64,000 nucleotides of DNA from Sphingomonas sp. (GTDB lineage: Bacteria; Pseudomonadota; Alphaproteobacteria; Sphingomonadales; Sphingomonadaceae). Made by a program: the position numbers and the translations under genes. The stretch is taken from contig JBJXEC010000004.1 of NCBI GenBank assembly GCA_046155125.1, forward strand, positions 457-64,456. The letters are read 5' to 3'. The notes beneath the pieces were generated by a model. It was not told the DNA's origin, did not search any database, and saw only the letters and a program-made list of their open reading frames with translations. This document shows positions 3,707 to 54,081 of this stretch, piece after piece. Every line of letters starts with the position of its first letter. Within the stretch, counting starts at the first letter, position 1.

Positions 3707-4893
3707 CGCCGCCGCCCGATAATGGCATTTACCGCTGCGCTGATCTTGACGGGCGGTTTGCCGCTGAGGATGCGGGCCTTGTCGATCATGCTTGTCTGTC
3801 CTGCGTAAAAACGCCCGATGAGCGCCGGGTTCAGCCGGTAGAAATGCTCCAGGATGCGGTAGCGGTCTTCGGGCTCGCCGGCCCGGTACAACATTTTGTC
3901 GAGCAAGCGATAGAAGCCGCGGGCGCGCCATGTCGAGCGGGAAAAGCCGTGCAGCAAATCGTGGAGTGCTGCACCCGACAGGTCGGTCGCGCGCGACAGC
4001 AAGGCTGCGGTGCGCACCGCGTCAGGCAGGGAATAGCCCGTCGTCGGGTGGAACAGCCCGGCGCGCATGCCAGCCTTGGCGACCTTGTTGCCGCCGCTTT
4101 TCCAATATTCCTCGAAATCCCCGCCAAGCGCCACTGGCAGCGCACCGCTCTCTTCCCGCAGCATGGCGGTGGTTTGCCAGCCATGCGCCTCGGCGTAGCT
4201 ATCGATCCGCGCGACGATCGGGTCGATATTCTGCCCAGAGCCCGCCGTGGGCCGGCCAAGATCGGGCGTGTCGCTGTAATAGGTATCCTCGATGAACAGC
4301 CGCGTGGGGGAAAAGGGCAACACATAGACGAAGCGATAGCCATCTGCTTGTTCAACGGTTGCGTCCATCACGACCGGGCGCGCGAGATCATGTGGGGCGG
4401 CCAGTTCGAACTCGCGGCCGACAAATTTTTGCCACCCAAGGTCGAGCTTGGACAGATCACCTGATCCGCGCGCGTCGATCACGCCCTTGGCCTCGACCCG
4501 GTCGCCGTCGGCCAGCACCACGGCGGTTGCGCTCGCGCCCATCACCTTGCGCCCAAACATCAAGGCGCCTTGGGGCATGGCTGCCCGGACGACCTTGTCC
4601 AGCCGTTCGGATTCGATTGAATAATAGGGAGAATTCAGCGTGCGTTCGCGTGCCGGAAACTTGATGTCATAGGCGTCCCAGCCATGGGTTATCAGCGGCT
4701 CGACGATCCACCGGTCGGCTCGCGCGATGTCGCGGCTGAAGAATGACCACAGATGGTTGCCGCCAACGCTATGGCTCCCCTCAAGCACGCGAATGTCGAG
4801 GTCCGGGCGCTTGCGCCGCAGCGCCAAGGCAATAAGGCCGCCGGCAAGGCCCGCGCCAACAATCGCCAGATCGCACTTTGTTGTCGACGCCAT
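3703..4893 (-). CDS. crtY: lycopene beta-cyclase
   Basis: Track ORF was trimmed to ATG 4893 (MASTTKCDLAIVGAGLAGGLIALAL dinucleotide fold). It is 396 aa and sits first in the crtY-crtI-LOG-crtB operon. Confidence 0.88.
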   Translation of the reverse strand: MASTTKCDLAIVGAGLAGGLIALALRRKRPDLDIRVLEGSHSVGGNHLWSFFSRDIARADRWIVEPLITHGWDAYDIKFPARERTLNSPYYSIESERLDKVVRAAMPQGALMFGRKVMGASATAVVLADGDRVEAKGVIDARGSGDLSKLDLGWQKFVGREFELAAPHDLARPVVMDATVEQADGYRFVYVLPFSPTRLFIEDTYYSDTPDLGRPTAGSGQNIDPIVARIDSYAEAHGWQTTAMLREESGALPVALGGDFEEYWKSGGNKVAKAGMRAGLFHPTTGYSLPDAVRTAALLSRATDLSGAALHDLLHGFSRSTWRARGFYRLLDKMLYRAGEPEDRYRILEHFYRLNPALIGRFYAGQTSMIDKARILSGKPPVKISAAVNAIIGRRR

Positions 4894-5014
4894 GATGCCG
4901 ATTAGCCGATTTGCAGGGACGAATGAAGGGCTGGTTGCACAACAAATTGTTCCGGCCGGTCGGCTTGGTCCGTCAAGGCGGTTCCCCAGACACCTGCGAT
5001 GCGCTAGGCAGCGG

Positions 5015-5851
5015 ATGATGGTGGTGATCGCGTTATTCTGGTCGGCCTGTTGGTCAGCACTGGCGATGTCAGGCATTGTTGGCGTGCGCTATCTGGCGGT
5101 CAGCGGCATGTTTGCGTGGATGACGCGGCGTCTGCACCCGGGGCTCTACACAGGGCTTGACCGGCAAATCGCCCGCGAAATCCGCTGGAGCCTGATGAGC
5201 GCTGCGATTTACGGCGCCCCGGCAGGCGTCATCGCCTGGGGTTGGCAGAACCGGGGCTGGACCTTGATTTACAGCGATGTGGCGGATTATCCGGTCTGGT
5301 ATCTGCCGCTTTCGGTGCTGCTCTATTTGCTGGCGCACGACACCTGGTTCTACTGGACGCATCGCTGGATGCACCAGCCGATGCCATTTCGCGTGGCGCA
5401 TGCCGTTCACCACGCCAGCCGGCCGCCGACGGCCTGGGCAGCGATGGCGTTTCACCCGATCGAGGCGCTCACCGGGGCTGTGATAATTCCGCTACTGGTG
5501 TTCGCTATTCCGATCCATGCCGCTGCACTGTCCTTGGTGTTGGTGGTCATGACGGTTATGGGGGTGACTAATCACATGGGCTGGGAGATTTTCCCTAGGT
5601 TCATGTGGCGCGGACCATTAGGCAGGTGGCTGATTACCGCGAGCCATCATCAGCGGCATCATTCGGACTACAGGTGTAACTATGGGTTGTATTTCCGGTT
5701 CTGGGACCATCTTTGTGGCACTGACCACGGAATCGGCGGCTTTAACGCAGATCATGGCCGCCGGGTCAATACAGCGGTTCGCGCGCCGGCTGGGGGCCGC
5801 GTTCATCGTCGTGGGGATGCTGCCGGGCGCCGCGCCGACCAGCAGACTTGA
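5015..5851 (+). CDS. crtG: fatty-acid hydroxylase / sterol desaturase superfamily membrane protein, probable carotenoid 2,2'-beta-ionone ring hydroxylase
   Basis: It carries histidine boxes HDTWFYWTHRWMH, HAVHH and HHQRHH and several TM helices, and is divergent from crtY. CrtG enzymes belong to this superfamily. Start was set at ATG 5015 because the upstream part of the track ORF overlaps crtY (alternative 5066). Confidence 0.6.
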   Translation: MMVVIALFWSACWSALAMSGIVGVRYLAVSGMFAWMTRRLHPGLYTGLDRQIAREIRWSLMSAAIYGAPAGVIAWGWQNRGWTLIYSDVADYPVWYLPLSVLLYLLAHDTWFYWTHRWMHQPMPFRVAHAVHHASRPPTAWAAMAFHPIEALTGAVIIPLLVFAIPIHAAALSLVLVVMTVMGVTNHMGWEIFPRFMWRGPLGRWLITASHHQRHHSDYRCNYGLYFRFWDHLCGTDHGIGGFNADHGRRVNTAVRAPAGGRVHRRGDAAGRRADQQT

Positions 5852-7619: not shown

Positions 7620-7659
7620 ACGCTGGCTGGACGCCGGCGAAAACTAGGCGTATTCCAAG

Positions 7660-7752
7660 CGCCATCCCCGGGGAGCCGACAGGCTGAGAGGGGCGGTGCA
7701 AGCCCGCCCGACCCGCAGAACCTGATCCGGCTAGCACCGGCGGAGGGAGGGT
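7660..7752 (+). promoter_or_regulatory. TPP (THI-box) riboswitch upstream of thiC
   Basis: The sequence contains GGGAGCC..GCTGAGAGG..ACCCGCAGAACCTGATCCGGCTAGCACCGGCGGAGGGAGG. This matches the conserved CUGAGA and ACCUGAUCCGG..CCGGCG.AGGGA cores of the TPP aptamer, located 55 nt upstream of the thiC ATG. Confidence 0.9.
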
Positions 7753-7801
7753 CTGGCTTTCATCCCTGAAACCCAGCCTGGCTCTCCGTATTTTGGAGTG
7801 A

Positions 7802-9691
<1,890 letters not shown>

Positions 9692-10102: not shown

Positions 10103-10498
10103 ATGGCGCATCTCGCTCACATCGCCGTAATTGTGCGCGATTATGACGAGGCGCTCGCCTTTTATGTTGGCAAGCTGGGATTTGCGCTGATCGAAGATGT
10201 CGCTGTCCCGGACCAGTCCAAGCGGTGGGTTACGATCCGACCGCCGGGCGCAGGTGAGGACGCGACCAGCCTGTTATTGGCGCGCGCCGTTGGGGCTGAA
10301 CAATCGGCGGCGATTGGCAACCAGTCAGGCGGCCGCGTCTTTTTATTGCTGCAAACCGAGGATTTTGCCCGAGACTATGCCGCATTCACGCGGTTGGGCG
10401 TGCACTTTCTGGAGGCGCCCAGGCACGAACCTTACGGCACCGTCGCGGTGTTCGAGGATCTTTACGGCAACCGCTGGGACCTGATCGAGCGCGCCTGA
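10103..10498 (+). CDS. VOC family protein (glyoxalase/bleomycin resistance/dioxygenase fold)
   Basis: 131 aa. The N-terminal HIAVIVRDYDEALAFYVGKLGF and C-terminal FEDLYGNRWDL patterns are typical of VOC proteins. Confidence 0.8.
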   Translation: MAHLAHIAVIVRDYDEALAFYVGKLGFALIEDVAVPDQSKRWVTIRPPGAGEDATSLLLARAVGAEQSAAIGNQSGGRVFLLLQTEDFARDYAAFTRLGVHFLEAPRHEPYGTVAVFEDLYGNRWDLIERA

Positions 10499-10515
10499 CG
10501 CTCGCTTGCTTCCCT

Positions 10516-11424
10516 TCAGCTGCGTGCGTCGCGGCGCCTGAACGCTGCCGGGCTCGTGCCGACGATCTCGCGGAACTTCTTTGAAAACTGCGCATGGGTG
10601 GCAAAGCCGCAATCATGGGCGATGGAAGCGACGGAATCGTTTGAGGCCAGCAGCATCTGCTGCGCGTGCACGATCCGCTGGGTAATGACATAGCCATAAG
10701 GCGGGTGGCCGGTCGACTCGCGAAAAGCGCGAACAAAGTGATAGCGGCTATAGCCTGCAACGCCGGCCAGATCGTCGAGCGAAATCGGTTCGGCCAGATG
10801 CGCGAGAATGTAATCGCGCACGCGCTTTACCGTGCTGGGGGCAAGGGTCAGCCGATCAGCCGACGGCACCTCGCCGTAATTGTTCGTCGCCGCAAGCCGC
10901 ACCAGCAGCGCGTCGAGATAATGGTCCGCCGCCAGCAACCGTGCGGCGTCATCCTGCTCGTCCTGCGCCAGCGCCAGCGCGAGCTGGGCGATGAGTGCGT
11001 CATATTGCCCAATGCGTTCGCCAAACCCGACAGCTTGCGGCGCGCGATCAAAAACCTGGCCGATCAGATTGGAGAAGCGTTCTGGCTTCACATAGATGTG
11101 CACAAAAGCAATCGGGCCTTCCGTCGACCATTCATAAGTCTGGCCGGCTTCCACCGTCGTGCAGGAATTGAGCGGAACGTTGACTGAGCGCAGCTCGTTA
11201 CCACGCCGCCGATGCACGCGCTTTGGCCCCCCCTGATGCAGCACGATGAGGTGATGGTCGAGCGGCGGCTGCACCATATGCGCTTCGCTGCCTGACCAGG
11301 CCTGGACAATCGCGCCCGGCAAATGCCGCAAGCCGCCCGCTCGGGCGCCTTTGGGGGTGGCCCATTCGCGCCATTGCAACGGGTTCACCCGCTCATCCCG
11401 CCGAGTGCCTGCACTATACCGCAT
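10516..11424 (-). CDS. AraC family transcriptional regulator (cupin-like N-domain)
   Basis: It has a C-terminal double HTH (YSRYHFVRAFRESTGHPPYGYV...IAHDCGFATHAQFSKKFREIVGTSPAAFRR). ATG 11424 is preceded by GGAGGA. Confidence 0.85.
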   Translation of the reverse strand: MRYSAGTRRDERVNPLQWREWATPKGARAGGLRHLPGAIVQAWSGSEAHMVQPPLDHHLIVLHQGGPKRVHRRRGNELRSVNVPLNSCTTVEAGQTYEWSTEGPIAFVHIYVKPERFSNLIGQVFDRAPQAVGFGERIGQYDALIAQLALALAQDEQDDAARLLAADHYLDALLVRLAATNNYGEVPSADRLTLAPSTVKRVRDYILAHLAEPISLDDLAGVAGYSRYHFVRAFRESTGHPPYGYVITQRIVHAQQMLLASNDSVASIAHDCGFATHAQFSKKFREIVGTSPAAFRRRDARS

Positions 11425-11570
11425 CCGTAATTCCTCCGCTGCGCCAGATACTGCGCTCCCCAAGCCGACGAAAGACTCCAGTATCGAGATAGTGGCACAG
11501 ATGCGCGCGATTGTCCCATATCAGTGCGAAAGTGCCGGGGTTTGCGGCGTAGTGCCGCGGTCTTGCGGGC

Positions 11571-11954
11571 CTATCGCGCTGGGGTGTGCTGAAGCTCGCT
11601 CAGCGCAATAACGAGCGCTGCATCATCTGATTCCGACACCGGAGCATGAAAAACCTTGCGCATCTTGTCGATCTCGGCCTGCCATTTAGCGCTGTCAAGC
11701 GGCGGCTGACTGGCCAGCATTTCGGCTGAATGGCAGCCGCTGCAATTCTGGGTGAGCAAATCGCCATTTGCGGTGGCCGGCAGGACCGGGCGCTCTTCGG
11801 GCAGGGTTAGCGCGGCGGATTTCAAGGTAAAATCGGCGGCGACGGCGGGCGGTTGCGCGTCATCAATGGCGTTGGGAGCCCGGCCGCTGCAGGCAGAAAG
11901 GGCCGCGAGCAGGCCGAGTGCGGCCGATGCGTAGCGAGTGATCCGGCGGTTCAT
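11571..11954 (-). CDS. monohaem cytochrome c, SorB-like partner of sulfite dehydrogenase
   Basis: Trimmed to ATG 11954 (MNRRITRYASAALGLLAALSAC signal/lipobox-like). It has a single CXXCH (CSGCH). ATGA overlap with the upstream molybdoenzyme stop. Confidence 0.7.
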   Translation of the reverse strand: MNRRITRYASAALGLLAALSACSGRAPNAIDDAQPPAVAADFTLKSAALTLPEERPVLPATANGDLLTQNCSGCHSAEMLASQPPLDSAKWQAEIDKMRKVFHAPVSESDDAALVIALSELQHTPAR

Positions 11955-13141
11955 GCGACCGTCACGCGCCGGGTTTCGATGGTATTGAGCATATAGCCGC
12001 TGGGGTTCCACACCGGTGTGGATGTCTGGGTTTGCCCGGTGGCGTTGGTGCAGCGCAGCCGCAGGGCATGGCTGCCGATCGCGGGCGTCAATCGCGCTGA
12101 CCATGCCCTTAGCGAATATGTTCCATGGTCGCGCCCCAGCGTCGCCGCTTGCCAGCTTTTGCCGTCGAGTGACAGCTCGACGCGGGCGATGGCGCTGGCG
12201 CCGCCCATGGCGATGCCGCGAAGGTCAATCGGCGCGCCACGTTGAACGGCAATGTCCCCGGCATGGCTGGTGAAGAAGCTGCGCGGGACCATGCGGCTGA
12301 TTGGCTCTGTTGGGAAATCCTTGGCGCCGGGGATGACGCTTGCCGTCGGCGTTGTCGGGATACGATAGGCCTTGGCCATCCAGAAATTATCATCCTCGCC
12401 GGTCAGCACCTCGATATGGCCGAGCGCCTTGATCCAGTAGGTCGAGTACCAGCCCGGCACCACCAGCCGCAGCGGAAAGCCGTTGAGCAGCGGCAGCGCC
12501 TTGCCGTTCATGGCAAAGGCGACCAGCACCTCGCCATCGAGCGCATGGTCGATATCGAGCGACTTGGCGAACCAGTCGGCGCCTTCGGGTGGCCGATCGA
12601 GCCCTGCAAACCGGACGCGCCTGGCGCCCGCCGACACACCGGCCACCGCCAGCACGTCTTTCAGGCGGACCCCGGTCCAGCGGGCATTGCCGATCGCGCC
12701 GTTCCCCCATTGCGCGCCGGGTACGCGCGGCGAAAACAGCGCGCGCGAATTGCCGGAACACTGGTTGACAGCGTTCACCTCAACGCGCGGCATCTGAAGA
12801 AGTTCGGCAAGCGACAGCGCGCGCGGCTGGCGCACCGCGCCATCGATCTTGAGCCGGAACCCCGCCGCATCCACTTCCAGCGGGATGTCCGAATAGTGCC
12901 ATCGCACGAAAAAGCGGTCATTGGGGGTGAACACGCTTTTGTCGAAAACGTCGAAGGGCGTCTCCAGCAGGGGCGCGCGCTGGCGCAGCACGAGCATCGT
13001 GTGTTTGTCGGCAAAGTCGGTGGTGATCGGGCGTGACGGGCCACTGCCTCTGATCGACGCCGTGCCGATTTGCGGCAGCAACGCGGCCGCGCCACTCAGT
13101 CCCAGGGCGCCAAGCGCTGCCCGGCGGCCAACCTCAACCAT
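11951..13141 (-). CDS. sulfite oxidase family molybdopterin oxidoreductase, SorA-like sulfite dehydrogenase
   Basis: Trimmed to ATG 13141, which gives a twin-arginine signal (MVEVGRRAALGALG). It has the Mo-ligand cysteine context NQCSGNSR, the LRLVVPGWYSTYWIK block, and a C-terminal extension of the length expected for a dimerisation domain. Confidence 0.8.
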   Translation of the reverse strand: MVEVGRRAALGALGLSGAAALLPQIGTASIRGSGPSRPITTDFADKHTMLVLRQRAPLLETPFDVFDKSVFTPNDRFFVRWHYSDIPLEVDAAGFRLKIDGAVRQPRALSLAELLQMPRVEVNAVNQCSGNSRALFSPRVPGAQWGNGAIGNARWTGVRLKDVLAVAGVSAGARRVRFAGLDRPPEGADWFAKSLDIDHALDGEVLVAFAMNGKALPLLNGFPLRLVVPGWYSTYWIKALGHIEVLTGEDDNFWMAKAYRIPTTPTASVIPGAKDFPTEPISRMVPRSFFTSHAGDIAVQRGAPIDLRGIAMGGASAIARVELSLDGKSWQAATLGRDHGTYSLRAWSARLTPAIGSHALRLRCTNATGQTQTSTPVWNPSGYMLNTIETRRVTVA

Positions 13142-13721
13142 GGATCGCGACCAACGGCGCAAACCGCGCGACTTGCTGCCCGACGAGCGCCAGCTGCTCG
13201 GCAACCAAGGGCTCGCTTGCGCCGCCTGCATCGTCAAACTTTGTAAGCTGGGTGTTGATGGCCGCCGCAAAGGGCGTTGGCCAGCCGCGCAGCGCATGGA
13301 CAATCGAACGCAGCGCCGCAATGGTGCTGCCAGTTGCCTGCCAGCCATAAGCGGTCGCGATCAGGCCGACGGGCATGTCGGCGAGATAGGGCCGGGCGTC
13401 GCCCGACGTTTCCTCAAGCAGATCAAGCGCGTTCTTCACCACGCCCGAAATGCTGCCATGATAGCCGGGCGACGCGATGATGAGCGCAGACGCTTCGCGC
13501 ACGGCGCCCACAAACGCGAGTTCCTCAGCCGTCCTGCTCGTGGCCTTTGGATCATAAAGCGGCAGCCGGGCCATGTCGGCACCGCCGAACATGCGGGTGC
13601 GGAACCCCTGGCGGCCGGCGCTTTCCAGCGCGATGTTGAGCGCGCGCTCAGTTGACGACACACCGCCGATGGTGCCCCCAATGCCGACGACGAGCGGGGC
13701 TTGGGCAACTGAGTCGGCCAT
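13134..13721 (-). CDS. NAD(P)H-dependent FMN reductase (SsuE/MsuE/SmoA-like)
   Basis: 195 aa with the IIASPGYHGSISGVVKNALD block typical of the FMN_red family. Its stop overlaps the sorA-like start by 8 nt. Confidence 0.8.
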   Translation of the reverse strand: MADSVAQAPLVVGIGGTIGGVSSTERALNIALESAGRQGFRTRMFGGADMARLPLYDPKATSRTAEELAFVGAVREASALIIASPGYHGSISGVVKNALDLLEETSGDARPYLADMPVGLIATAYGWQATGSTIAALRSIVHALRGWPTPFAAAINTQLTKFDDAGGASEPLVAEQLALVGQQVARFAPLVAIHG

Positions 13722-13736
13722 CAGCTTATGCCATCC

Positions 13737-14819
13737 TTATGCGAGCAGGCCGTGGTCGATCCGCGGCAGCACGTGGCGCGCCACCAGATCAGCTTCTGCG
13801 GCATGAGGATAGCCCGAGAGGATGAAGGCCTCAATGCCCATCGCGCGATAATCATTGAGCTTGGCGATCACCTGGTCGGGGTCACCCACAATTGCCGCTC
13901 CGCAGCCCGAGCGCGCGCGGCCGATGCCAGTCCACAAATTGGCCTCAGCATAGCCATCGTCGCCGGCATTTTCCCGAAGCGCGGCTTGTGCGGCGACTCC
14001 AGCCGAGGATGAATCGAGCGATTTCGCACGGATGGCGGCCCCTTGCGCGGCATCAAGCTTTGAGAGCAGCCGGTCAGCGGCGCTGCGCGCTTCGTCTTCG
14101 GTTTCGCGCACGATCATGTGGGCGCGGTAGCCAAAGCGCAGTGTGCGGCCGTGGCGCGCGGCGCGGGCGCGCATGTCAGCGATGATGTCAGCCACCGCCT
14201 CGCGCTTGTCGGGCCACATCAAATACACGTCGCAGCCCTTGGCGGCCGCTTCACGCGCATCCTCGCTGAGCCCACCGAAATAGAGTTGGGGTGCCTTGCC
14301 GGAGACGGTGCCGATGCGCGGCGGGTCGAGCTTCAGCGTCCAGAATTCGCCCTCATGGTCGAGCGGCTCGCCGTTCAGCAGCGTTTTCAGGATGTGCATC
14401 GCCTCCGTGGTGCGCGCATAGCGCGGCGCCGATGCAAGCGTTTCGCCCGGGAGGTCAGAGGAGATGATGTTCACCTTTAGCCGCCCGCCCAGCATCTGGT
14501 CGATCGTCGCAATCTGACGGGCAAGCTGCGGCGGCCAGCTTTCCCCCACGCGCACGGCCATCAGCAGGGCGAGGCGGCGCAGCAGCGGGGCGATACCGGC
14601 GGCAAACGCGGTGGTGTCCATGCCCAGCGCATAACCGGAAGGCAGCAAAATATTGTCGAACCCGCCGGTTTCGGCCTGCATCACGATGTCGCGGCAATGC
14701 GCCCAGCTTGATTTTAGCGCGGCGTCCGGCACGCCGAGAAACTCATAGTCATCGTCACACAGCGCAGAGAACCAGCTTATCTCGCAAGGGGGGAGCGGGT
14801 TGGGCGCCGCCGCGGTCAT
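13737..14819 (-). CDS. LLM-class FMNH2-dependent monooxygenase, alkanesulfonate monooxygenase (SsuD) family
   Basis: Trimmed to ATG 14819 (ATGA overlap with the AKR stop). It is colinear with remembered E. coli SsuD blocks: LYFGG, RFGYRAHMIVRETEDEA, NLWTGIG, VGDPDQV and SGYPH. Confidence 0.85.
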   Translation of the reverse strand: MTAAAPNPLPPCEISWFSALCDDDYEFLGVPDAALKSSWAHCRDIVMQAETGGFDNILLPSGYALGMDTTAFAAGIAPLLRRLALLMAVRVGESWPPQLARQIATIDQMLGGRLKVNIISSDLPGETLASAPRYARTTEAMHILKTLLNGEPLDHEGEFWTLKLDPPRIGTVSGKAPQLYFGGLSEDAREAAAKGCDVYLMWPDKREAVADIIADMRARAARHGRTLRFGYRAHMIVRETEDEARSAADRLLSKLDAAQGAAIRAKSLDSSSAGVAAQAALRENAGDDGYAEANLWTGIGRARSGCGAAIVGDPDQVIAKLNDYRAMGIEAFILSGYPHAAEADLVARHVLPRIDHGLLA

Positions 14820-15733
14820 GGCAGCGGTACGCCGCGCGCGGCGACCAGCACTTGATACCAGCGGGTCCGCGTCCAGCGCGCCTTGTAGACTTCGCCAATT
14901 TCGGCGACGCGGCTGAGATTTTGCGTGCCGACAATCGGGATGGCGCGCGCCGGGTGCGCCATGATCCAGCCATAGGCAGCGGCCGCCCGGCTGATCCCGG
15001 CCTCGTCCGCGACCACATCGAGCGCGGCAGCCACGGCGCGCGCGCGGCCATCTTCTGGCGCGCCAATCCGCCCGCCACCCAGCGGAGACCATGCCAGCAC
15101 GGCAATGTCGCGCTCCATCGCAAGGTCAAGCAAGCCATCTTCGACAGGTTCAATCGCAAGCGGCGAGAGTTCGGGCTGGATGCTGGCCAGCGGGATGGTC
15201 AGCAGCGCGCCCAGCGCGCGAGTTTGCGCGATGGAATAGTTGGAGATGCCCACCGCGCGCACCTTGCCCGACGTGACCATATTCTCCAGCGTGCGCGCAA
15301 CGTCGTGCGGGTGCGCGAGCACGTCCGGCCGGTGGATTTGGTAGAGATCAACCTGCTCGACTTGCAACCGCCGCAGCGACGAATCGAGCGCGTCCATCAA
15401 ATAGTCGCTGCTGGAGTCGTAGGGTACCGGCGGCGTGATGCCGCCCTTGGTCGCGAGCACCATGCGCCCGCGCAGCGCCGGCGCTTCGGCAAAGACGCGG
15501 CCCAGCAGGCGTTCGGCATCACCAAACCCGCCGGAGCCGTCAAAGCCATAGATATCAGCCGTGTCGAACAGCGTAACCCCGGCCTCGAACGCGGCTTCGA
15601 CCAGCGCGCGCCCTTCGGACACGGTGGCGTTGCTGAAACGCCACATGCCCCAGGCAATCGGGCTGACCATCAATCCACTCTTGCCGAGCGGGCGGGAATC
15701 GGGTGTAAGTATAATTTCAGACATCGTTGTCAT
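14816..15733 (-). CDS. aldo/keto reductase
   Basis: 305 aa with AKR blocks (GMWRF, LFDTADIYG, LDLYQIHRPD, GISNY). It is the first gene of the minus-strand operon. Confidence 0.88.
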   Translation of the reverse strand: MTTMSEIILTPDSRPLGKSGLMVSPIAWGMWRFSNATVSEGRALVEAAFEAGVTLFDTADIYGFDGSGGFGDAERLLGRVFAEAPALRGRMVLATKGGITPPVPYDSSSDYLMDALDSSLRRLQVEQVDLYQIHRPDVLAHPHDVARTLENMVTSGKVRAVGISNYSIAQTRALGALLTIPLASIQPELSPLAIEPVEDGLLDLAMERDIAVLAWSPLGGGRIGAPEDGRARAVAAALDVVADEAGISRAAAAYGWIMAHPARAIPIVGTQNLSRVAEIGEVYKARWTRTRWYQVLVAARGVPLP

Positions 15734-16860
15734 ACATAGAGGCGAGACGGTTGGGAGAGCAAGTCCGATATGGGCTGATCGGCACCGGAATGATGGGGGT
15801 CGAGCATATCAACAACCTGGCGATCACGCCGGGGGCCGTTGTTACTGCCATCGCCGACCCGGTCCCGGCCTCGGTCGAGTGGGCGTCCGCCGCGCTTGGC
15901 CCGCGCGCGCAAGGAGTTGCGACCTTCGACAGCGCCGCAGCACTGGCGGCGAGCGGCGCGTGCGACGCGGTGATCGTTGCGAGCCCCAATCACACCCATC
16001 GCGCGGTGCTGGCGCCGCTGTTCGACGCTGGCTTGCACATCCTTTGCGAAAAGCCGCTGGCTACCACGCTTGCCGATGCGCGGTGGATCGTCGACCGCGC
16101 GGAAGCGACCGACCGCGTGTTCTGGACAGCGATGGAATATCGCTACATGCCACCGGCGGCCGCCTTCATTGCCGACGTGCATGGCGGGCGCATCGGCCGG
16201 TTGCAAATGCTGTCGATCCGCGAGCACCGCTTTCCCTTCCTGGCCAAAGTCGGCGACTGGAACCGGTTTTCGCGCAACACTGGCGGCACGATGGTCGAGA
16301 AATGCTGCCATTTCTTCGACTTGATGCGCCTGATCGTCCAGTCGGCGCCGGTGCGCGTCTATTGCTCCGGCGCGATGGACGTGAACCATCTGGACGAGCT
16401 TTATGGCGGTGAAATACCTGACATTATCGACAACAGCTTTACCACCGTTGATTTTGCCAATGGCGTGCGCGCGATGCTCGATTTGTCGATGTTCGCAGAC
16501 GGCGCGGAAAATCAGGAAGAAATCACGGCGGTTGGCGACAAGGCCCGGCTCGATGTGCTCATACCCGAAGGCGCGCTGGTCTTCTCGCCGCGGGTTGGCT
16601 TTCGCGGCGAAAAAAAGGTCGAGCGCCGGGTGGTCGAGGTGGACCAGGCAGCGCTTAACGCCGGCAGCCACCACGGCTCGACCTTTTACGAGCACCAGAA
16701 ATTTATCGCGGCAGTGCGCGGCGTTGGACCAGTCGAGGTTACCGCGCGCGACGGATTGATGGCGGTTGCAATGGGCATGGCTGCTGAAATCAGCGCGCGC
16801 GAACACCGCGTGGTCGCCATGGAAGAATTGGGTTTGGGTAAGGAATTATTGTTGGCGTGA
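15727..16860 (+). CDS. Gfo/Idh/MocA family oxidoreductase
   Basis: It has an N-terminal Rossmann fold (YGLIGTGMMGVEHI) and the EKP motif (ILCEKPLATT). The true start may be TTG 15751, because ATG 15727 overlaps the divergent AKR start. Confidence 0.85.
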   Translation: MSYIEARRLGEQVRYGLIGTGMMGVEHINNLAITPGAVVTAIADPVPASVEWASAALGPRAQGVATFDSAAALAASGACDAVIVASPNHTHRAVLAPLFDAGLHILCEKPLATTLADARWIVDRAEATDRVFWTAMEYRYMPPAAAFIADVHGGRIGRLQMLSIREHRFPFLAKVGDWNRFSRNTGGTMVEKCCHFFDLMRLIVQSAPVRVYCSGAMDVNHLDELYGGEIPDIIDNSFTTVDFANGVRAMLDLSMFADGAENQEEITAVGDKARLDVLIPEGALVFSPRVGFRGEKKVERRVVEVDQAALNAGSHHGSTFYEHQKFIAAVRGVGPVEVTARDGLMAVAMGMAAEISAREHRVVAMEELGLGKELLLA

Positions 16861-16924
16861 ACGCGCAAAGGCGCGGCATGCCCCAAGAAACGGCATTATT
16901 TTAAGCAATCCGGGGAGGAATTTA

Positions 16925-19336
16925 ATGAACAAGGCACTATTGTTTGCAGGCGCTGCATGCTTTGCGATCGTGGCGGCCACGCCTGCCGTTGCGCAGACTG
17001 GCCCGGCCACAGCGCAGGACCAGGCGGCCGACGACAACGCACCACAGCCCGGCGACATCGTCGTCACTGCACAGAAACGCTCGGAGCGATTGCAGGATGT
17101 GCCGGTTGCGGTGTCGGTCATCGGTGGCGATGATCTGGCGTCGGTCGGCAAGGTCAGCCTTGAAGGCGCGCAATATCTGGTGCCGACGCTTAACTTCTTG
17201 AAATCGGGCACAACGCTCAACCAGTCACTGTTCCTGCGCGGGGTCGGCACGGCGACCTTCTCGATTGCCGGCGAGCCTTCGGTGTCGACGGTGGTTGATG
17301 GCGTTGTGTACAGTCGCTCGGGCGAGGCGTTCAGCGAACTTGTCGACATTGACCGCATCGAAGTGCTGCGCGGGCCGCAGGGCACGCTGTTCGGGAAAAA
17401 CGCGTCGGCGGGCGTTATCAACATCGTGTCGAAGCGGCCCACCAGCACCTTTGGCGGCTATTCCGAATTCGGTTATTTTAGCGACTCTGAGTATCGCGGG
17501 CGCGTGGCGCTCAACGTGCCGATCGGCGACAAGATTCGCAGCCGGGCGACGGGCTTTTTTGATACCTATGACGGCAATATCCGCAACGTTACCCGCAACC
17601 GGCAGGTAAACGGCTTCCTCCATTATGGCGGCCGGTTGCAGCTTGAGGCGGATGCAGCGCCCAATCTGAGCCTCGCCTTCATCGCTGATTATCATCACAA
17701 TGACGACGATTGCTGCGCCGAAGTGATTGCAACGCCGCCAATTGCAGGTGCAACCGGGCTGCCGACCACCAATTTGTCGTCCGCCGTGCTCCCCATTCCG
17801 CGCGGAGCAGATACGCGCGAAGTGGCGCAGAACCTCGTCACCGCGACCATCGAAACGGGTTATGGATTTTCGCTCCAGGCCGATTTGACGGTTGCCGAGC
17901 ACGTAATCACCTCGATCACCGCGTACCGTGTTTATGAAAATAACGAGATCCGGGATGGCGATTTCCTGCCGGCGGCGTTTGTCGGTTTCAACCAGCTTCA
18001 TGATTTTGGCCCGCAAACGGGCAATACCTTCACGCAGGAAGTGCGGCTGACCTCGCCGGGCAAGCAATTGTTCAACTATGTGCTGGGGGCCTTTTATTCG
18101 CGGGCGGTGTCGGAGCGCATTTTCAGCCGGTTCGTCACGCGCTGTGCGGCGGCGCCCGGGGCTGTGCTGTCGACGACTGCGCCCACGCCGTGCAGCAGTC
18201 CGCTTGCCGCCCCTATAACGCAGCCTTTTGGCACCGCCGATTTTGGCTCGACGTTCGACAATTTTTCGCTGTTCGGCCAGGGCACGCTGAATGCGACCAG
18301 CTTTTTGCGCTTTATCGGCGGCATTCGCTTTACGTCTGATAATCTTGACGTGTTTCATTCGCGCACCGCGAGAAACCTTGATGTGAACGCAGCCGGCGTG
18401 CCGGTTGGCACCGCGGGCATTAACCCTGCTTTTGATCAGGGCGTGTTCGATTCGCCCGGCGTAAACGGCGTGGTGACGGCGACGAACGGCATCCCCTTTA
18501 CCGCGCGCACCAGCGCCACCAATTTCTCCGGCAAGGGCGGCGTTCAGGTAGATGTGTCGCGCAACAACACCGCCTATTTCACCTATTCACGCGGGTATAA
18601 GGGCCCGGCGTTCAACGTGTTTTTCAACCTGTCGAAAAACGGCACCAACGCGATCGCGCCGGAAACGTCGAACGCGTACGAAGTCGGCCTGAAGAATACG
18701 CTTTTCGGTGGCCGTCTGGTGCTGAACATCGCGGCATTCCTGGCGCAATATCAAAATTTCCAGGCCAATAACCCGGATAATATCGCCGGCGTCGTCGTCA
18801 CGCGGTTTACTAATGCAGGCCGGGTGTCGACGCGCGGGGCCGAGCTCGATGCAAGCTTTCGCCCGGTTGCCGGGCTGAATTTTTCGGGCGGCGTTGCGTA
18901 CACCGATGCGCATGTTGACCAGTTCAATGCGCCCGCTGGCGCTACGCCTGCGCAGATCATCCCTTCGGGCACACCGCTTGGCTTTGCGCCAAAGTGGAAG
19001 GGCAATTTGTCCGCTGATTATCGGTGGCGCGGCAACGGCAATTTCGACGTGCTGCTGGGCGCGCAAGGCTCTTACCAAAGTTCGCAGCTTGCCGCTTTTT
19101 CGCCCGATCCGGTCATCCGGCGCCTTGGCACCATTGGCGCCTATGGCCTCATCAACCTGTCGGTCGCGATTGCCGACAAGGCGGATCATTACCGGCTGAC
19201 CTTCCAGGTGCGCAATTTGCTCGACCAGAGTTTTGCCGCCGCGATATCCAATGGCGGACCAGGCGGCGCTTATCGTTATCAAATTCCCCGTGACGCCGAT
19301 CGCTATTTCGGGGTGACTGGACGCGTGAATTTCTAA
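16925..19336 (+). CDS. TonB-dependent receptor
   Basis: Trimmed to ATG 16925 after GGGGAGGAA. It has a signal peptide ending AVAQ, a plug region (DIVVTAQKRSERLQDVPVAVSVI), a long beta-barrel, and a C-terminal VTGRVNF ending in Phe. Confidence 0.9.
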   Translation: MNKALLFAGAACFAIVAATPAVAQTGPATAQDQAADDNAPQPGDIVVTAQKRSERLQDVPVAVSVIGGDDLASVGKVSLEGAQYLVPTLNFLKSGTTLNQSLFLRGVGTATFSIAGEPSVSTVVDGVVYSRSGEAFSELVDIDRIEVLRGPQGTLFGKNASAGVINIVSKRPTSTFGGYSEFGYFSDSEYRGRVALNVPIGDKIRSRATGFFDTYDGNIRNVTRNRQVNGFLHYGGRLQLEADAAPNLSLAFIADYHHNDDDCCAEVIATPPIAGATGLPTTNLSSAVLPIPRGADTREVAQNLVTATIETGYGFSLQADLTVAEHVITSITAYRVYENNEIRDGDFLPAAFVGFNQLHDFGPQTGNTFTQEVRLTSPGKQLFNYVLGAFYSRAVSERIFSRFVTRCAAAPGAVLSTTAPTPCSSPLAAPITQPFGTADFGSTFDNFSLFGQGTLNATSFLRFIGGIRFTSDNLDVFHSRTARNLDVNAAGVPVGTAGINPAFDQGVFDSPGVNGVVTATNGIPFTARTSATNFSGKGGVQVDVSRNNTAYFTYSRGYKGPAFNVFFNLSKNGTNAIAPETSNAYEVGLKNTLFGGRLVLNIAAFLAQYQNFQANNPDNIAGVVVTRFTNAGRVSTRGAELDASFRPVAGLNFSGGVAYTDAHVDQFNAPAGATPAQIIPSGTPLGFAPKWKGNLSADYRWRGNGNFDVLLGAQGSYQSSQLAAFSPDPVIRRLGTIGAYGLINLSVAIADKADHYRLTFQVRNLLDQSFAAAISNGGPGGAYRYQIPRDADRYFGVTGRVNF

Positions 19337-19357
19337 CCGGGAGGCGGTGCAGGATAC

Positions 19358-19395
19358 GCCCGGCCAGGGAGCACTCCTCGGCCGGGCTTTCTTTG
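19358..19395 (+). terminator. rho-independent terminator between convergent TonB receptor and MFS genes
   Basis: The perfect 8-bp GC stem GCCCGGCC (19358-19365) pairs with GGCCGGGC (19380-19387). It is followed by TTTCTTTG. Confidence 0.6.
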
Positions 19396-20640
19396 TCAGT
19401 GCGCCATCGCCAGACCATCCCCGCGATCAGCCTCGTCAACGGGGATGATGCGCGGAATGAGCATTTGGACGAGGCAGAGCGCCAGCAGGTACGAGCCCGA
19501 GCAGATGGCGAGCAACGGCCCATAGCCCCAGCCGTGCGACAGCGAATAGGCCGCAAGCTGGATTAGCACGATCGACCACATATTTCCGCAAAACGCCGCG
19601 ATGCCGATGGCCGAGCCCACCGATCGCGCCGGGAAAATGTCGGTCGCAAGACCAAACAGGTTGGTCGAAAAGCCCTGATGCGCAAACAGGCCAAGCCCCA
19701 GCAACAGCGCCGCACTCCAGGCATCATTTACGAACAGCACGCCGATGACAGGGAAGATCATCAGCGCATAAAGCAGCAGCGTGCTCTTGCGCGCGCGATC
19801 AACGCTCCAGCCCATCGCCATCAGCCGCGTCGGCAGCCAGCCGCCGCTCAACGCGCCAAGCGCTGCCAGCAGATAGACCAGCGCGACCGGCAGCCCGAGC
19901 TTGCCCTGTGGCAGGCCAAACAGCCGGTGAAACAGATCAGGCAACCATGACAGCATGAAAAACCACACCTGATCGCTCAACACCTTGGCGATGGCGAGTG
20001 CGGCAAGCTTGCGGTCGCGCAGCAGCGATGCCCATTTTACGGGGGCAGGCGCGGCGCCGTCTTCGGCCACCGGCCGCACCTTGATGGCAAACCACACGGC
20101 AACCCAAATAAGCCCGAGGCCGCCTGCAACCAGAAAAGCAGTCCGCCATCCAAACGCGACCGCAAGCGCGGGGATGGCAAGCGGCGTTACCACCGCGCCG
20201 ACGTTGGGCGCGGTATTGCCGATGCCGAGCGCGACCGAACGTTCCTTTTGGGTAAAATAGGTGGCGGCGGACTTGACCGCGGCGGGCGTGCCAATGGATT
20301 CGGCAGCGCCAAGCACGATCCGGGCGATGATGAAACCGGCAACGCCTGCGGCAAACGCATGCGCCATGCCGGCCAGGCTCCAGACCGCAACGCCAATCGC
20401 AAAGCCAAGCCTCAGGCCGACCCGGTCGATGAACCAGCCAGTTCCCAAAAACGCCACCGCGGCCGAAAACTGGAAGGCCGACACCATATTGGCATAGTCC
20501 TGATCCGACCAGCGAAACTCCGCCTCCAGCGAAGGCTTCAGCAGCGCCAATATCTGGCGATCAACATAGTTGAGCATGATGGCGAAAAACACCATCGCCA
20601 CGATCACCCAGCGCGCCGCCCCGCCCCGCCCTGCCATCAT
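19396..20640 (-). CDS. MFS transporter, anion:cation symporter (ExuT/hexuronate-like) type
   Basis: 414 aa with about 12 TM helices. The N-terminal LNYVDRQILALLKP motif is typical of ACS-family MFS permeases. Confidence 0.8.
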   Translation of the reverse strand: MMAGRGGAARWVIVAMVFFAIMLNYVDRQILALLKPSLEAEFRWSDQDYANMVSAFQFSAAVAFLGTGWFIDRVGLRLGFAIGVAVWSLAGMAHAFAAGVAGFIIARIVLGAAESIGTPAAVKSAATYFTQKERSVALGIGNTAPNVGAVVTPLAIPALAVAFGWRTAFLVAGGLGLIWVAVWFAIKVRPVAEDGAAPAPVKWASLLRDRKLAALAIAKVLSDQVWFFMLSWLPDLFHRLFGLPQGKLGLPVALVYLLAALGALSGGWLPTRLMAMGWSVDRARKSTLLLYALMIFPVIGVLFVNDAWSAALLLGLGLFAHQGFSTNLFGLATDIFPARSVGSAIGIAAFCGNMWSIVLIQLAAYSLSHGWGYGPLLAICSGSYLLALCLVQMLIPRIIPVDEADRGDGLAMAH

Positions 20641-20745
20641 CCAAGCCCTCCCGCCTTATTGCCTTGCCGATAACGTTGTCATACCCGCAACGCTTGGGCT
20701 AGTCATTTGCGCTTGGCGTGGATGGCGGCGTAATCAAGGGGCGGC

Positions 20746-21804
20746 ATGGCGCACAGGCAAGCACAACCGGCGCAACGCCCCTTGCCGATGGCCGCCGACC
20801 TGTATGGCGATATCGAGCCCAGCCCCAAGGCGCGCTGGCAGGATTATCTGCCGGGGCTGATCGTGGTGGGGGCCGGAACGCTCTCCGCCGGGTTCATCTC
20901 CGACCATTATGGGGCGCCGCTTACCTTAATGGCCTTGTTGATAGGGCTGGCGCTTAATTTTTTGAGTGCGGACGCGCGGCTGGCGCCGGGGCTTGCCTTT
21001 GCCTCGCGCTCGCTGTTGCGCTGGGGGATTGTGCTGGTGGGCGTGCGCGTCACCTTTGGGCAGATTGCAGCGCTTGGGCCGGTCGCGTTGCTGGCGGTGC
21101 TGGTGATCGTCGCACTGGTGATTGGTGCGGGGGTGTTGGCGGCGCGTGGGCTGGGGTTTGACAGCGCGTTTGGGGTGCTGGCGGGCGGGGCCGTGGCGAT
21201 TTGCGGGGCATCGGCCGCGCTCGCGCTTGCCACAACGCTTGGGGAGAAGCGCGCCGGGCAAGGGCAGCTGACGCTGGTGCTCGTCGGGATTTCGGCGATG
21301 AGTGCGCTCGCGCTCGTGTTCTACCCGTTGATTGCGCACGCGTTTTACTTGAGTGACCTGAAGGCGGGGTTCATGCTGGGCGCGTCGATCCATGATGTCG
21401 CGCAGACGCTGGGTGCGGGCTATGCCTATTCACGCGGGGCGGGGGAGATTGCCGCCATCGTGAAGCTTACGCGGGTCGCGCTGCTCGCGCCGGTGCTTGC
21501 GCTCGTTGCCATCGCCTATCCTGTCGAGGGCGCGCGGAAAAATGGGCCAGCGGTGCCGTGGTTCGTGGTTGGCTTTTTTGTCATGGCGGGGGTAAATTCG
21601 CTTGGCGTTGTCCCCGTCGGCGTTGCCGCTGGCGCTGAGCGGGTTGCTGCAGCGATGCTTGCCTGCGCCGTAACGGCCACCGCGATCCGATCGCCCATGC
21701 GGCAGTTGATGGAAGGCGGGCCGCGCCCGCTGCTGGTCATTGTCGCCGCTACCCTTGTCGCGCTCGGGCTCGCGCTTGGCGCGACACTCCTCCTGATCGG
21801 CTGA
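20746..21804 (+). CDS. YeiH/UPF0324 family membrane protein (family annotated as putative sulfate exporter)
   Basis: 352 aa, highly hydrophobic with a repeated-helix architecture. Blocks such as GASIHDVAQ and KLTRVALLAP are typical of the YeiH family. Confidence 0.75.
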   Translation: MAHRQAQPAQRPLPMAADLYGDIEPSPKARWQDYLPGLIVVGAGTLSAGFISDHYGAPLTLMALLIGLALNFLSADARLAPGLAFASRSLLRWGIVLVGVRVTFGQIAALGPVALLAVLVIVALVIGAGVLAARGLGFDSAFGVLAGGAVAICGASAALALATTLGEKRAGQGQLTLVLVGISAMSALALVFYPLIAHAFYLSDLKAGFMLGASIHDVAQTLGAGYAYSRGAGEIAAIVKLTRVALLAPVLALVAIAYPVEGARKNGPAVPWFVVGFFVMAGVNSLGVVPVGVAAGAERVAAAMLACAVTATAIRSPMRQLMEGGPRPLLVIVAATLVALGLALGATLLLIG

Positions 21805-21811
21805 TATGGGT

Positions 21812-22861
21812 TCAGTCCGTCCGCGCGGGCCCGGTTGAATCGCGCACCACCAGCGTGAATGGAATTTCGCGCTGCGCCGGGTTGTCGCTCAACAGCAGGT
21901 CAGCCGCCTGATGCGCCAGTTCGCGAATCGGCTGACGGATCGTGGTCAGCGGCGGCCACACATAACCGGCCAGTGCGGTATCATCGAAGCCTGCAACCGA
22001 CAGCGCACCCGGCACTGCAACCCCGCGCCGGTGCGCCACGCTCAAAACGCCCGCTGCCATGTCATCGCTTGAAGCAAAAATCGCGGTCGGTGGCGATTGC
22101 AGCGCCAGCAGCGCTTCGGCTTCGGCAGCGCCTGATGCAAAGTCGTACTGGCCGTGCCGCACCAGCTCGGGATCAACCGCAATGCCTGCGGCCGCCATCG
22201 CCAGACGAAAGCCTGCCTCGCGCTGTGCGCTGGTTGCATAGCCCGATTGCCCCGTGATGAAGCCGATCCGCCGGTGGCCAAGGTCAACCAGATGTCGCGT
22301 CATGGTGGCAGCGGCGGCGCGGTTGTCGATATAGGTGGCCGGCGCCAGACCGGGATCGCTGCCCGGCGACACGCGGACGAACGCCACCCCGTGCCGTTCG
22401 AGCAGCGCCAGCACCGCGGGATGGTCGCTTGCCGGCGGGGTCAGGATCAGTCCATCGATATGGGTCGCCTCGATGAGGCTTTCGATATCGGCGATCAGCT
22501 TGGTAGAGCTCCGGTCGTAGGGCTGCGCGATCATCCGAACTCCGTCCGCCTCGCAGCGGTCGCGGATGCCGGATTGCATCTCATAAACATAATAGGGGCT
22601 CGGATTGTCGCAAATGAGCGCAATCTGAAAGGATCGCCTTCCGGCAAGCGCCCGCGCTGCGCTGCTCGGACGAAAGTTTAGCCGCGCGACAATGGCGGCG
22701 ACCCGAGCGCGGGTTTCGGCCCCGACATAGCGTTCATTGTTCAGCACCCGCGACACCGTCTTGATCGAGACGCCCGCCTCGCGTGACACGTCTTTTATGG
22801 TCACGCGCGGCGCCCCGGGTTCTCGCATCGCATGGTTGGGCGTGACTGCAGGGTCGTTCAC
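21812..22861 (-). CDS. LacI family transcriptional regulator
   Basis: It has an N-terminal HTH (VTIKDVSREAGVSIKTVSRVLNN) and a periplasmic-binding-protein-like effector domain. Confidence 0.88.
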   Translation of the reverse strand: MNDPAVTPNHAMREPGAPRVTIKDVSREAGVSIKTVSRVLNNERYVGAETRARVAAIVARLNFRPSSAARALAGRRSFQIALICDNPSPYYVYEMQSGIRDRCEADGVRMIAQPYDRSSTKLIADIESLIEATHIDGLILTPPASDHPAVLALLERHGVAFVRVSPGSDPGLAPATYIDNRAAAATMTRHLVDLGHRRIGFITGQSGYATSAQREAGFRLAMAAAGIAVDPELVRHGQYDFASGAAEAEALLALQSPPTAIFASSDDMAAGVLSVAHRRGVAVPGALSVAGFDDTALAGYVWPPLTTIRQPIRELAHQAADLLLSDNPAQREIPFTLVVRDSTGPARTD

Positions 22862-23000
22862 ACAAGCGTTTTGCCCCAGCCCTTGCGCTGAGTCGATGCG
22901 TTGTTTAGCGCTGGCCTTGCGGTCACCGTCTTACTAATATAATACAGTGAGAGCGGCTTGGTGCTTGCCGCAACGTAACAAAAGGCGGCAGATAGCGACG

Positions 23001-36990: not shown

Positions 36991-37122
36991 CGCTCAGGTC
37001 ATTGACGACGACGCGCTCCGCATCAACCAAATTGCGCGCCGCGCCGGGCGCGCCTTGACAAGGATTCGGCAGTCACTCATGGCTGCGCTGACCTATCCAG
37101 GCTGGCGACATTGCGGGGCGAC

Positions 37123-40357: not shown

Positions 40358-40386
40358 TCGGCGGGAAGACACGGGGGATCGCCACG

Positions 40387-41193: not shown

Positions 41194-41235
41194 CCTGATT
41201 TTTCCCCAAAGCGACGGGAGGGGCGATTGGCCCGA

Positions 41236-44722: not shown

Positions 44723-44739
44723 CGGTGCCCGGCAGTATC

Positions 44740-48421: not shown

Positions 48422-48487
48422 CGGTTTCGTCCTCCGCGGATGCCTCAGCGCTGTTTGGTAACCGGGCGGCGGCCACGGCGCCACGGA

Positions 48488-50251: not shown

Positions 50252-50358
50252 GCTGGTGGTCTTCCCCCATCGAAATCAGTCGGCCGTCCTTAAGGATAAC
50301 GACCAGTTGACGAACTTATTCAGCTGATATTGCCGCCAACCCGTTACCAATTCGCCAA

Positions 50359-51270: not shown

Positions 51271-51279
51271 GCGGTGGCC

Positions 51280-54070: not shown

Positions 54071-54081
54071 CTTGTGTCCGA

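Follow-up and report, generated by a model that had tools for sequence, protein, structure and literature searches.

The sulfoquinovose monooxygenase (sulfo-SMO) pathway for sulfoquinovose (SQ) has been established in Agrobacterium tumefaciens C58, where it is encoded by smoABCDEFGHI; this organism excretes sulfite, which is slowly autooxidised, and transporters other than ATP-binding cassette (ABC) systems are documented for sulfo-SMO clusters (Sharma et al. 2022, PMC8795539). As summarised in PMC9594981, the sulfo-ASMO pathway of Novosphingobium aromaticivorans DSM 12444 employs SquD and SquF (Liu et al. 2021), and many sulfo-ASMO clusters carry an SsuE-type reductase. In some sulfo-SMO clusters, including that of Sphingomonas sp. 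Leaf17, the GH188 enzyme SqgA replaces the GH31 glycosidase (Kaur et al. 2023, PMC10755693, Fig. 5c). Sulfite dehydrogenases serving organosulfonate degradation have long been known (Denger et al. 2008, cited in PMC9594981), and in Alteromonas macleodii ATCC 27126 the products of the sulfo-SDO cluster include a TonB-dependent receptor, a predicted transporter of sulfate and a sulfite dehydrogenase of two components (Nat Commun 2025, PMC12780224). Here we analysed a stretch of 64,000 nt from Sphingomonas sp. (GCA_046155125.1, contig JBJXEC010000004.1, positions 457-64,456, forward strand; hereafter the window), in which a cluster spanning about 11571-22861 is, with high probability, a sphingomonad-type sulfo-SMO (sulfo-ASMO) locus, and five minus-strand genes that include a SorAB-like pair would be its catabolic arm.

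Direct reading of the minus strand between 11400 and 15900 revealed the five genes in a tight array from 15733 to 11571 (Table 1). The TGA stop codon that ends the aldo-keto reductase (AKR) gene (14818-14816) overlaps the ATG of the monooxygenase gene (14819-14817), forming ATGA at 14819-14816, and a spacer of 15 nt containing AAGGA (13736-13722) precedes the flavin mononucleotide (FMN) reductase gene. The sorA-like gene begins with an ATG at 13141, giving an 8-nt overlap with the end of the reductase gene (13141-13134), and ATGA at 11954-11951 marks a 4-nt overlap between the sorA-like and sorB-like genes. In a separate gene call, on a public 3.9-kb contig that encodes an identical SorA, the genes for the reductase, SorA and SorB have the limits seen here and overlap in the same way. 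A consensus scan of the five-gene block found no terminator-like site and one weak promoter-like match (13579-13551, inside the reductase gene), a count below chance expectation; when the junction regions were searched for inverted repeats, no terminator emerged behind sorB. The overlapping or 15-nt junctions, the lack of a terminator-like site and a conserved gene order indirectly support the view that the five genes may form one transcription unit. The initial annotation had described five coupled genes that join an SsuD/SmoC-type desulfonation set (AKR, monooxygenase and FMN reductase) to a SorAB-like sulfite dehydrogenase; all four of its junctions were confirmed on direct reading, and its family assignments held in Pfam and NCBIfam searches. 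The pairing itself is supported, with desulfonation genes of the SmoC/SmoB type and a flavin reductase on one side and a periplasmic sulfite dehydrogenase of the SorAB type on the other.

The monooxygenase belongs to PF00296 and was most similar to characterised SQ monooxygenases when compared with PDB sequences using phmmer (SmoC 7OLF, 387 bits, E 7e-115; R. oryzae SmoC (RoSmoC) 7OH2, 382 bits, E 3e-113), with lower scores in the same search for MsuD (224 bits, E 4e-65), SsuD (211 bits, E 4e-61) and SfnG (91 bits). It is 54% identical to A. tumefaciens SmoC, 53% to RoSmoC and 36% to Escherichia coli SsuD, and its score against the NCBIfam SsuD equivalog (249.6 bits) is under half of the cut-off (518). 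The enzyme accordingly does not group with non-sulfonate luciferase-like monooxygenase (LLM) enzymes (387 bits for SmoC versus 91 for SfnG). In an alignment, the RoSmoC residues Tyr136 and Ser189 (FMN-phosphate gate) and the whole sulfonate site (Trp206, Arg236, His238, Tyr341 and His343) were identical in the window protein; since all seven are also common to SsuD and MsuD, they are necessary for a SmoC but no proof of SQ specificity. Genomic context adds a translationally coupled SmoB-like AKR upstream and a divergent SqgA gene, an arrangement conserved in related loci. We take the protein to be a putative reduced-FMN (FMNH2)-dependent SQ monooxygenase of the SmoC/SquD type. The SsuD/SmoC type proposed earlier therefore stands, whereas the sulfonate, which had been left generic, would be SQ or its glycosides and not generic alkanesulfonates.

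The AKR (PF00248, E 6e-53) has A. tumefaciens SmoB as its best PDB match (7BBZ/7BBY, E 1e-43, 152 bits, 36% identity), with a modest margin over the second-best relative, which is of the YdhF type (E 1e-36, 128 bits). Alignment to 7BBY/7BBZ revealed that the tetrad Asp71, Tyr76, Lys104 and His151 is conserved together with the glucose-contacting Arg152; two further SmoB features, described below, are not kept. In 76/80 related loci the AKR homologue is the neighbour of the SmoC homologue. We regard the protein as a putative 6-oxo-glucose (6-dehydroglucose) reductase of the SmoB/SquF type. The third protein falls in PF03358 (FMN_red, E 3e-20), reached neither the SsuE (31.6 bits, cut-off 164) nor the MsuE (30.9 bits, cut-off 212.5) equivalog of NCBIfam, and matched E. 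coli SsuE only locally (31%). It is a putative NAD(P)H-dependent supplier of FMNH2 to the monooxygenase. The parallel that had been drawn to the Agrobacterium trio with SmoA fails at this gene, which encodes a member of the SsuE-like superfamily (PF03358) and not of SmoA's PF01613, although its function may equal that of SmoA.

The two remaining genes resemble those for the sulfite dehydrogenase of Starkeya novella. The SorA-like protein combines PF00174 and PF03404, scores higher against the NCBIfam SorA model (486.7 bits) than against SorT (185) or SoxC (146), and is 53% identical to S. novella SorA (2BLF_A, E 1e-108). It keeps Arg55, His57, Cys104, Arg109 and Tyr236 (numbering checked on the 2BLF chain), of which we take Cys104 to be the molybdenum ligand and Arg55, His57 and Tyr236 to be active-site residues. 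Its N-terminus contains the twin-arginine leader MVEVGRRAALGALGLSGAAALL (GRRAAL), and the RR motif is present in 14/14 homologues from related loci. Both the leader and the catalytic residues agree with the initial annotation, which had called a molybdoenzyme exported by the twin-arginine translocation (Tat) system, and the protein is predicted to be the Tat-exported, molybdopterin-containing catalytic subunit. The SorB-like protein was assigned by the NCBIfam SorB model (64 bits) and aligns with 2BLF_B (E 1.5e-11; KMRKVFHAPV with KMIKVYHAPV), carrying a single haem motif, CSGCH, and the conserved Met in KMRKV. At its N-terminus (11874-11954) is a lipobox, LLAALSAC, followed by a linker of ~25 residues, and homologues from L002, L003, L005, L016, L041 and other related loci have a lipobox or, in its place, a hydrophobic N-terminal helix that looks uncleaved, again with a linker after it. 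These anchors point to a membrane-tethered rather than a soluble subunit, and the window protein is predicted to be a membrane-tethered c-type cytochrome lipoprotein.

Table 1 Genes and candidate operator sites of the cluster, with the number of homologues called by tblastn in the 80 closest related loci
Feature	Position	Strand	Description	Homologues (of 80 loci)
AKR, smoB/squF-like	15733-14816	-	305 amino acids (aa); first operon gene	76
Monooxygenase, smoC/squD-like	14819-13737	-	360 aa; TAA stop	
FMN reductase	13721-13134	-	195 aa; PF03358	21
sorA-like	13141-11951	-	396 aa	14
sorB-like	11954-11571	-	127 aa	14
sqgA	15751-16860	+	GH188 NAD+-dependent sulfoquinovosidase; PF01408 + PF02894; divergent from operon	48
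TonB-dependent outer-membrane receptor	16925-19336	+	Plug and beta-barrel domains; putative uptake of SQ/sulfoquinovosyl glycerol (SQGro)	54
Major facilitator superfamily (MFS) transporter	19396-20640	-	Anion:cation symporter type; PF07690; best NCBIfam model TIGR00893, D-galactonate transporter subfamily	57
YeiH/PSE-family membrane protein	20746-21804	+	PF03601, E 1e-52	37
LacI-family regulator	21812-22861	-	LacI helix-turn-helix (HTH) and periplasmic-binding-like domains	46
AraC-family regulator	10516-11463	-	HTH_18 + HTH_AraC; downstream of sorB; probably outside the system	1
Candidate operator	15720-15733		GACATCGTTGTCAT; pseudo-palindrome over smoB ATG, smoB/sqgA junction	
Candidate operator, second copy	20669-20682		GATAACGTTGTCAT; MFS/YeiH divergent intergenic region	

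The genes next to the operon point to SQ. The divergent gene encodes a protein 53% identical to SqgA, with PDB matches to FlSqgA (8QC2, E 2e-110) and ArSqgA (8QC3, E 4e-110), both of them SqgA structures (PMC10755693). All SQ contacts of ArSqgA are kept (Lys107, Tyr136, Glu189, His193 and His321), as is its sulfonate triad (Arg166, Leu170 and Lys172), so that the conserved contacts are those to the SQ hydroxyls (C1 to C4) and to the sulfonate. The longest sqgA open reading frame (ORF) starts from TTG at 15727; an alignment of 38 loci supports a conserved start at TTG 15751, with AGAGG ahead of it. Beyond the TonB-dependent receptor, the MFS protein is a putative inner-membrane importer of SQ or SQGro, the YeiH-family protein a putative exporter of sulfite (or sulfate), and the LacI-family protein the probable repressor of the cluster. 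Salmonella needs YeiH to resist sulfite stress, and annotations of YeiH orthologues call them putative sulfate exporters (PMC12880088). The AraC-family gene was rejected as the regulator of the cluster, since only one of the 80 related loci, and none of the 44 with full flanks, has a homologue, and it is probably not part of the system.

Scans of all main ORFs found no GH31 enzyme, ABC importer or ssuABC in the window. The initial annotation was right that the first two are missing among these ORFs, but the functions are present in the form of GH188 SqgA and of the TonB-dependent receptor plus MFS transporter; the presence of these genes beside the operon indicates non-orthologous replacement and not loss of function. 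Nor is the five-gene operon the self-contained module that had been proposed: sqgA and the receptor, MFS, YeiH and LacI genes adjoin it, a set whose conservation extends to dozens of species.

We then asked how widely this arrangement recurs, using a scan with one genome per species that yielded at least 578 relatives of the monooxygenase; counts of synteny cover the 80 closest (77-92% identity). These loci are mostly from Sphingomonas, with others from Caulobacter, Phenylobacterium, Sphingopyxis and a few Acidobacteria, and the closest is from a Sphingomonas metagenome-assembled genome (92% SmoC identity). Gene arrangement was counted in the 71 loci whose sequence continues for 3.5 kb or more past SmoC, revealing a reductase followed by SorA-SorB in 10, SorA-SorB without a reductase in 2, SorAB elsewhere in the locus in 2 (L054 and L061, one of these with a reductase after SmoC), a reductase only in 7, and neither reductase nor SorAB in 50. 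The reductase was tallied immediately behind the SmoC homologue in 19 of these 71. SorA-SorB thus lies directly downstream of SmoC on the same strand in 12/71 loci, 10 of these 12 with a reductase between, and its recurrence in 12 species loci indicates that the gene order is no chance juxtaposition. Overall, LacI-YeiH-MFS-receptor-SqgA / SmoB-SmoC is the core, and reductase-SorAB is an accessory addition that recurs in a minority of clusters, which are identical in other respects. Among the 44 fully flanked loci, the receptor was found in 38, the MFS transporter in 39, LacI in 33 and YeiH in 27. YeiH occurred in 10/10 full loci with SorAB versus 17/34 without SorAB (Fisher one-sided p = 0.003, uncorrected for shared ancestry), a pattern that fits the need to bring cytoplasmic sulfite to a periplasmic enzyme.

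Further homologues lie on plasmids. Those of Novosphingobium are ~72% identical to the window monooxygenase. On a megaplasmid of Sphingomonas paeninsulae (L082, 11526-16495), a second LLM oxidoreductase lies ~1.4 kb past smoBC and is followed by a TauD/TfdA dioxygenase that has an MFS transporter of its own and TonB-dependent receptors, possibly a further sulfonate-utilisation island. A plasmid of Rhizobium sp. WSM4643 (L083, 7781-10047) encodes a SmoC homologue (77% identical to the window protein) by a LacI regulator and a sugar ABC transporter, and its SmoC sub-clade is closer to the sphingomonad enzyme than is A. tumefaciens SmoC; no AKR is annotated next to it in the PLSDB gene table, which is incomplete and could omit one.

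Compared with A. tumefaciens, the locus shares an SQ monooxygenase, an AKR-type 6-oxo-glucose reductase and a linked flavin reductase, as well as the logic of a route from glycoside to SQ, then to 6-oxo-glucose plus sulfite, and finally to glucose. The parts differ: the flavin reductase is PF03358 rather than PF01613 (SmoA), the glycosidase GH188 SqgA rather than GH31 SmoI, and uptake would involve a TonB-dependent receptor and an MFS transporter rather than the SmoEFGH ABC system. The window cluster has a regulator of the LacI type and adds periplasmic SorAB and a YeiH-family transporter. The N. aromaticivorans system, compared through its description in reviews, likewise pairs an SsuD-like SQ monooxygenase with an AKR acting on 6-dehydroglucose in a sphingomonad host; unlike the window cluster, it was found through a GH31 YihQ gene and is described without a linked flavin reductase. 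The reviews consulted (2022-2026) mention no linked sulfite dehydrogenase for it. The clusters of Kaur et al. resemble ours in having SqgA in place of GH31 (the window SqgA being 53% identical to ArSqgA, with ligand contacts kept); among the tables and supplements of that paper, Fig. 5c aside, the pathway gene table contains no sulfite dehydrogenase and PF00174 is absent from the supplements (PMC10755693).

The closest analogue for the sulfite-oxidising part is the Alteromonas sulfo-SDO cluster, which also combines a sulfolytic SQ pathway with a two-component sulfite dehydrogenase (the dehydrogenases being likened by description) and a TonB-dependent receptor. There, C-S cleavage is by the Fe/alpha-ketoglutarate dioxygenase SqoD, the glycosidase is SqgH and the host is a gammaproteobacterium, as opposed to a flavin monooxygenase and SqgA here. 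S. novella SorAB shares the heterodimer-type pairing of a molybdenum subunit bearing a Tat signal with a small mono-haem CxxCH cytochrome c, but its SorB is soluble whereas that of the window is predicted to be membrane-tethered, and the window sorAB genes, with both products below the NCBIfam cut-offs, are embedded in an organosulfonate catabolic operon. The E. coli ssuEADCB system shares a two-component FMNH2 monooxygenase and NAD(P)H:FMN reductase from the same Pfam families, but similarity is limited (SsuD 36%; SsuE 31%, local), the window has no SsuABC transporter, and the setting is catabolic and not scavenging. We found no open-access paper, reviews from 2022-2026 included, describing SorAB linked to sulfo-SMO. 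The earlier suggestion that a link between desulfonation and sulfite dehydrogenase is undescribed for ssu and smo operons is consistent with this search as far as sulfo-SMO is concerned, but such a link has been published for the Alteromonas sulfo-SDO cluster. Because the core pathway is already known, sphingomonads included, and the analogous sulfo-SDO link has been published, the less usual part, SorAB and a PF03358 reductase downstream of smoC, is a modest, incremental extension and not a new principle.

From gene content, homology, residue conservation and synteny, we infer the following flow of substrate. SQ glycosides would be taken up by the TonB-dependent receptor and MFS transporter, and cytoplasmic, NAD+-dependent SqgA would free SQ. 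The SmoC-like enzyme, with O2 and with FMNH2 from the adjacent PF03358 reductase, would cleave the C-S bond to give 6-oxo-glucose and sulfite, and the SmoB-like AKR would reduce 6-oxo-glucose to glucose. Sulfite would leave the cytoplasm, probably via the YeiH-family protein, and be oxidised to sulfate by periplasmic SorA, with electrons passing through tethered SorB to the respiratory chain. The LacI-family repressor probably governs both divergent promoter regions through a common operator-like site.

Several observations weigh against this scheme. The window AKR shares just 36% identity with SmoB, lacks the 9-residue loop in which the glucose-binding Lys120 of SmoB sits, and has Gly in place of the adenine-stacking Phe241. 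The reductase is a remote member of PF03358 that is not orthologous to SmoA, and its putative partnership with the monooxygenase is suggested by adjacency only. The proposed SQ specificity of the monooxygenase rests on overall similarity and genomic context. Both dehydrogenase subunits fall below their NCBIfam cut-offs (SorA, 486.7 bits against 600; SorB, 64 against 93), sulfite transport by YeiH is a putative role, and the lack of both reductase and SorAB in 50/71 relatives indicates that the extension is dispensable. In addition, promoter and terminator consensus scans of 10400-23000 found nothing above chance.

Two other substrates deserve consideration. The operon might instead be a generic system of the SsuD/SsuE type, scavenging sulfur from aliphatic sulfonates under sulfate starvation, with the AKR detoxifying aldehydes and SorAB clearing excess sulfite. 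The SsuD equivalog is the best NCBIfam model of the monooxygenase (E 4e-74), but the score stops at 249.6 bits against a cut-off of 518 and identity is 36% to SsuD versus 54% to SmoC; the reductase does belong to SsuE's Pfam family, yet no ssuABC is found in the window, and the sulfonate-site residues, common to SsuD and MsuD, are neutral. Such a system would assimilate sulfite and not oxidise it in the periplasm. The operon also stands head to head with a sulfoquinovosidase gene that has kept every SQ-binding residue, and the conserved regulator is of the LacI type, which is typical of sugar catabolism. We consider this explanation improbable. A 6-sulfo sugar other than SQ (sulfofucose or some other sulfonated hexose, for instance) or a related glycoside would be compatible with an AKR without the Lys120-bearing loop and with identities to characterised enzymes of only 36-54%. 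Since the SqgA contacts to the SQ hydroxyls and the sulfonate are all conserved, and since Novosphingobium, with homologues ~72% identical, has a sulfo-ASMO pathway shown with recombinant enzymes and assimilates labelled SQ (PMC9594981; PMC13372026), we regard this as very improbable indeed. SQ or its glycosides are the substrate that the genes suggest, and we hold this with fair confidence.

The place of sorAB is less certain. These genes could be a separate unit for lithotrophy or general sulfite detoxification that merely adjoins the smo genes, with its own promoter and under sulfite or thiosulfate control. The absence of the module from most related smo clusters would suit such an origin, as would its position elsewhere in the neighbourhood in L054 and L061 and directly after smoC without a reductase in two loci; SorA identities among loci (55-68%, versus 79-92% for SmoC) are consistent with a separate evolutionary history. 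The weak promoter-like match inside the reductase gene (13579-13551) could serve such a unit, but matches of this kind are fewer than expected by chance, and the 8-nt reductase/sorA and 4-nt sorA/sorB overlaps argue for coupling, as do the same strand and order in 12 species and the cluster's YeiH in 10/10 full loci with SorAB. Scans of the window ORFs found no sox genes or sulfite-responsive regulator near sorAB. An independent unit therefore appears unlikely. That sorAB are co-transcribed with the smo genes and act on SQ-derived sulfite is, in our estimation, slightly favoured over the contrary. The full proposal is that, in a subset of Sphingomonas lineages, one operon would take SQ to glucose and sulfate, with YeiH export, tethered SorAB, sulfonate sulfur turned from toxic waste into an auxiliary respiratory electron donor and one LacI-type switch whose operator lies on the smoB start; for this combination we put the chances at about even.

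The candidate operator lies where smoB and sqgA meet head to head (15720-15753). The probable start codons are only ~17 nt apart (in their longest forms the two ORFs share 7 nt), which means that both promoters must sit within adjoining coding regions, and the head-to-head arrangement is kept in about 37 related species. A TATAAT at 15710-15715 was rejected as the -10 box of sqgA, not being conserved in the 38-locus alignment. The candidate operator has the 14-nt consensus GAyAwCGTTGTCAT, and its two copies (Table 1) hold the exact 11-mer CGTTGTCATAC. Allowing two mismatches or fewer, three matches occur in the 64 kb versus 0.3 expected by chance. Among related loci, 40 have the operator-like site at the smoB start and 17 have it upstream of the MFS gene, and these two positions account for 57/81 operator-like matches in 1.38 Mb of related loci; for the smoB-start copy, coding constraint is a partial confounder of this conservation. 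The shared site looks like an operator of the clustered LacI regulator that would tie the operon to the uptake genes.

If SorAB is co-expressed here, each SQ would bring these sphingomonads of soil and fresh water two additional electrons, and its sulfur would be released directly as sulfate. Direct release of sulfate, if true, would alter the budgeting of SQ-derived sulfur; in the sulfo-SMO organisms described so far, sulfite is excreted. With its recurrent YeiH gene, the cluster is a natural place to test the proposed role of this poorly characterised family in sulfite export. Public and RefSeq labels of the homologous genes are generic ("LLM class flavin-dependent oxidoreductase", "aldo/keto reductase", "Gfo/Idh/MocA oxidoreductase"), which gives the finding some annotation value, with a signature consisting of smoBC, sqgA, a TonB-dependent receptor, an MFS transporter, yeiH and, optionally, the reductase plus sorAB.

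The remainder of the window contains carotenoid, thiamine, cell-wall, O-antigen-like and flagellar genes. A carotenoid group (694-5851) includes genes for phytoene synthase, a LOG/lysine-decarboxylase-like protein, a phytoene desaturase-type amine oxidase, lycopene cyclase and a fatty-acid-hydroxylase-family (CrtZ-like) protein, consistent with a pigmented sphingomonad. A thiamine pyrophosphate (TPP) riboswitch (RF00059, 61 bits, 7659-7765, plus strand) lies ahead of thiC (7808-9691). A sugar-nucleotide/O-antigen-like cluster (37111-47967) encodes a nucleotidyltransferase, a 4,6-dehydratase/epimerase, a DegT aminotransferase, a TPP-dependent enzyme, a HAD hydrolase, an epimerase and a GT2 glycosyltransferase; the ORFs at 44710-45351, 46675-47967 and 48236-49876 had no Pfam match. 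On the minus strand, a flagellar block (49388-58334) comprises motA, flagellin, flgK, flgI, flgH, flgG, flgF, flgE and flgD.

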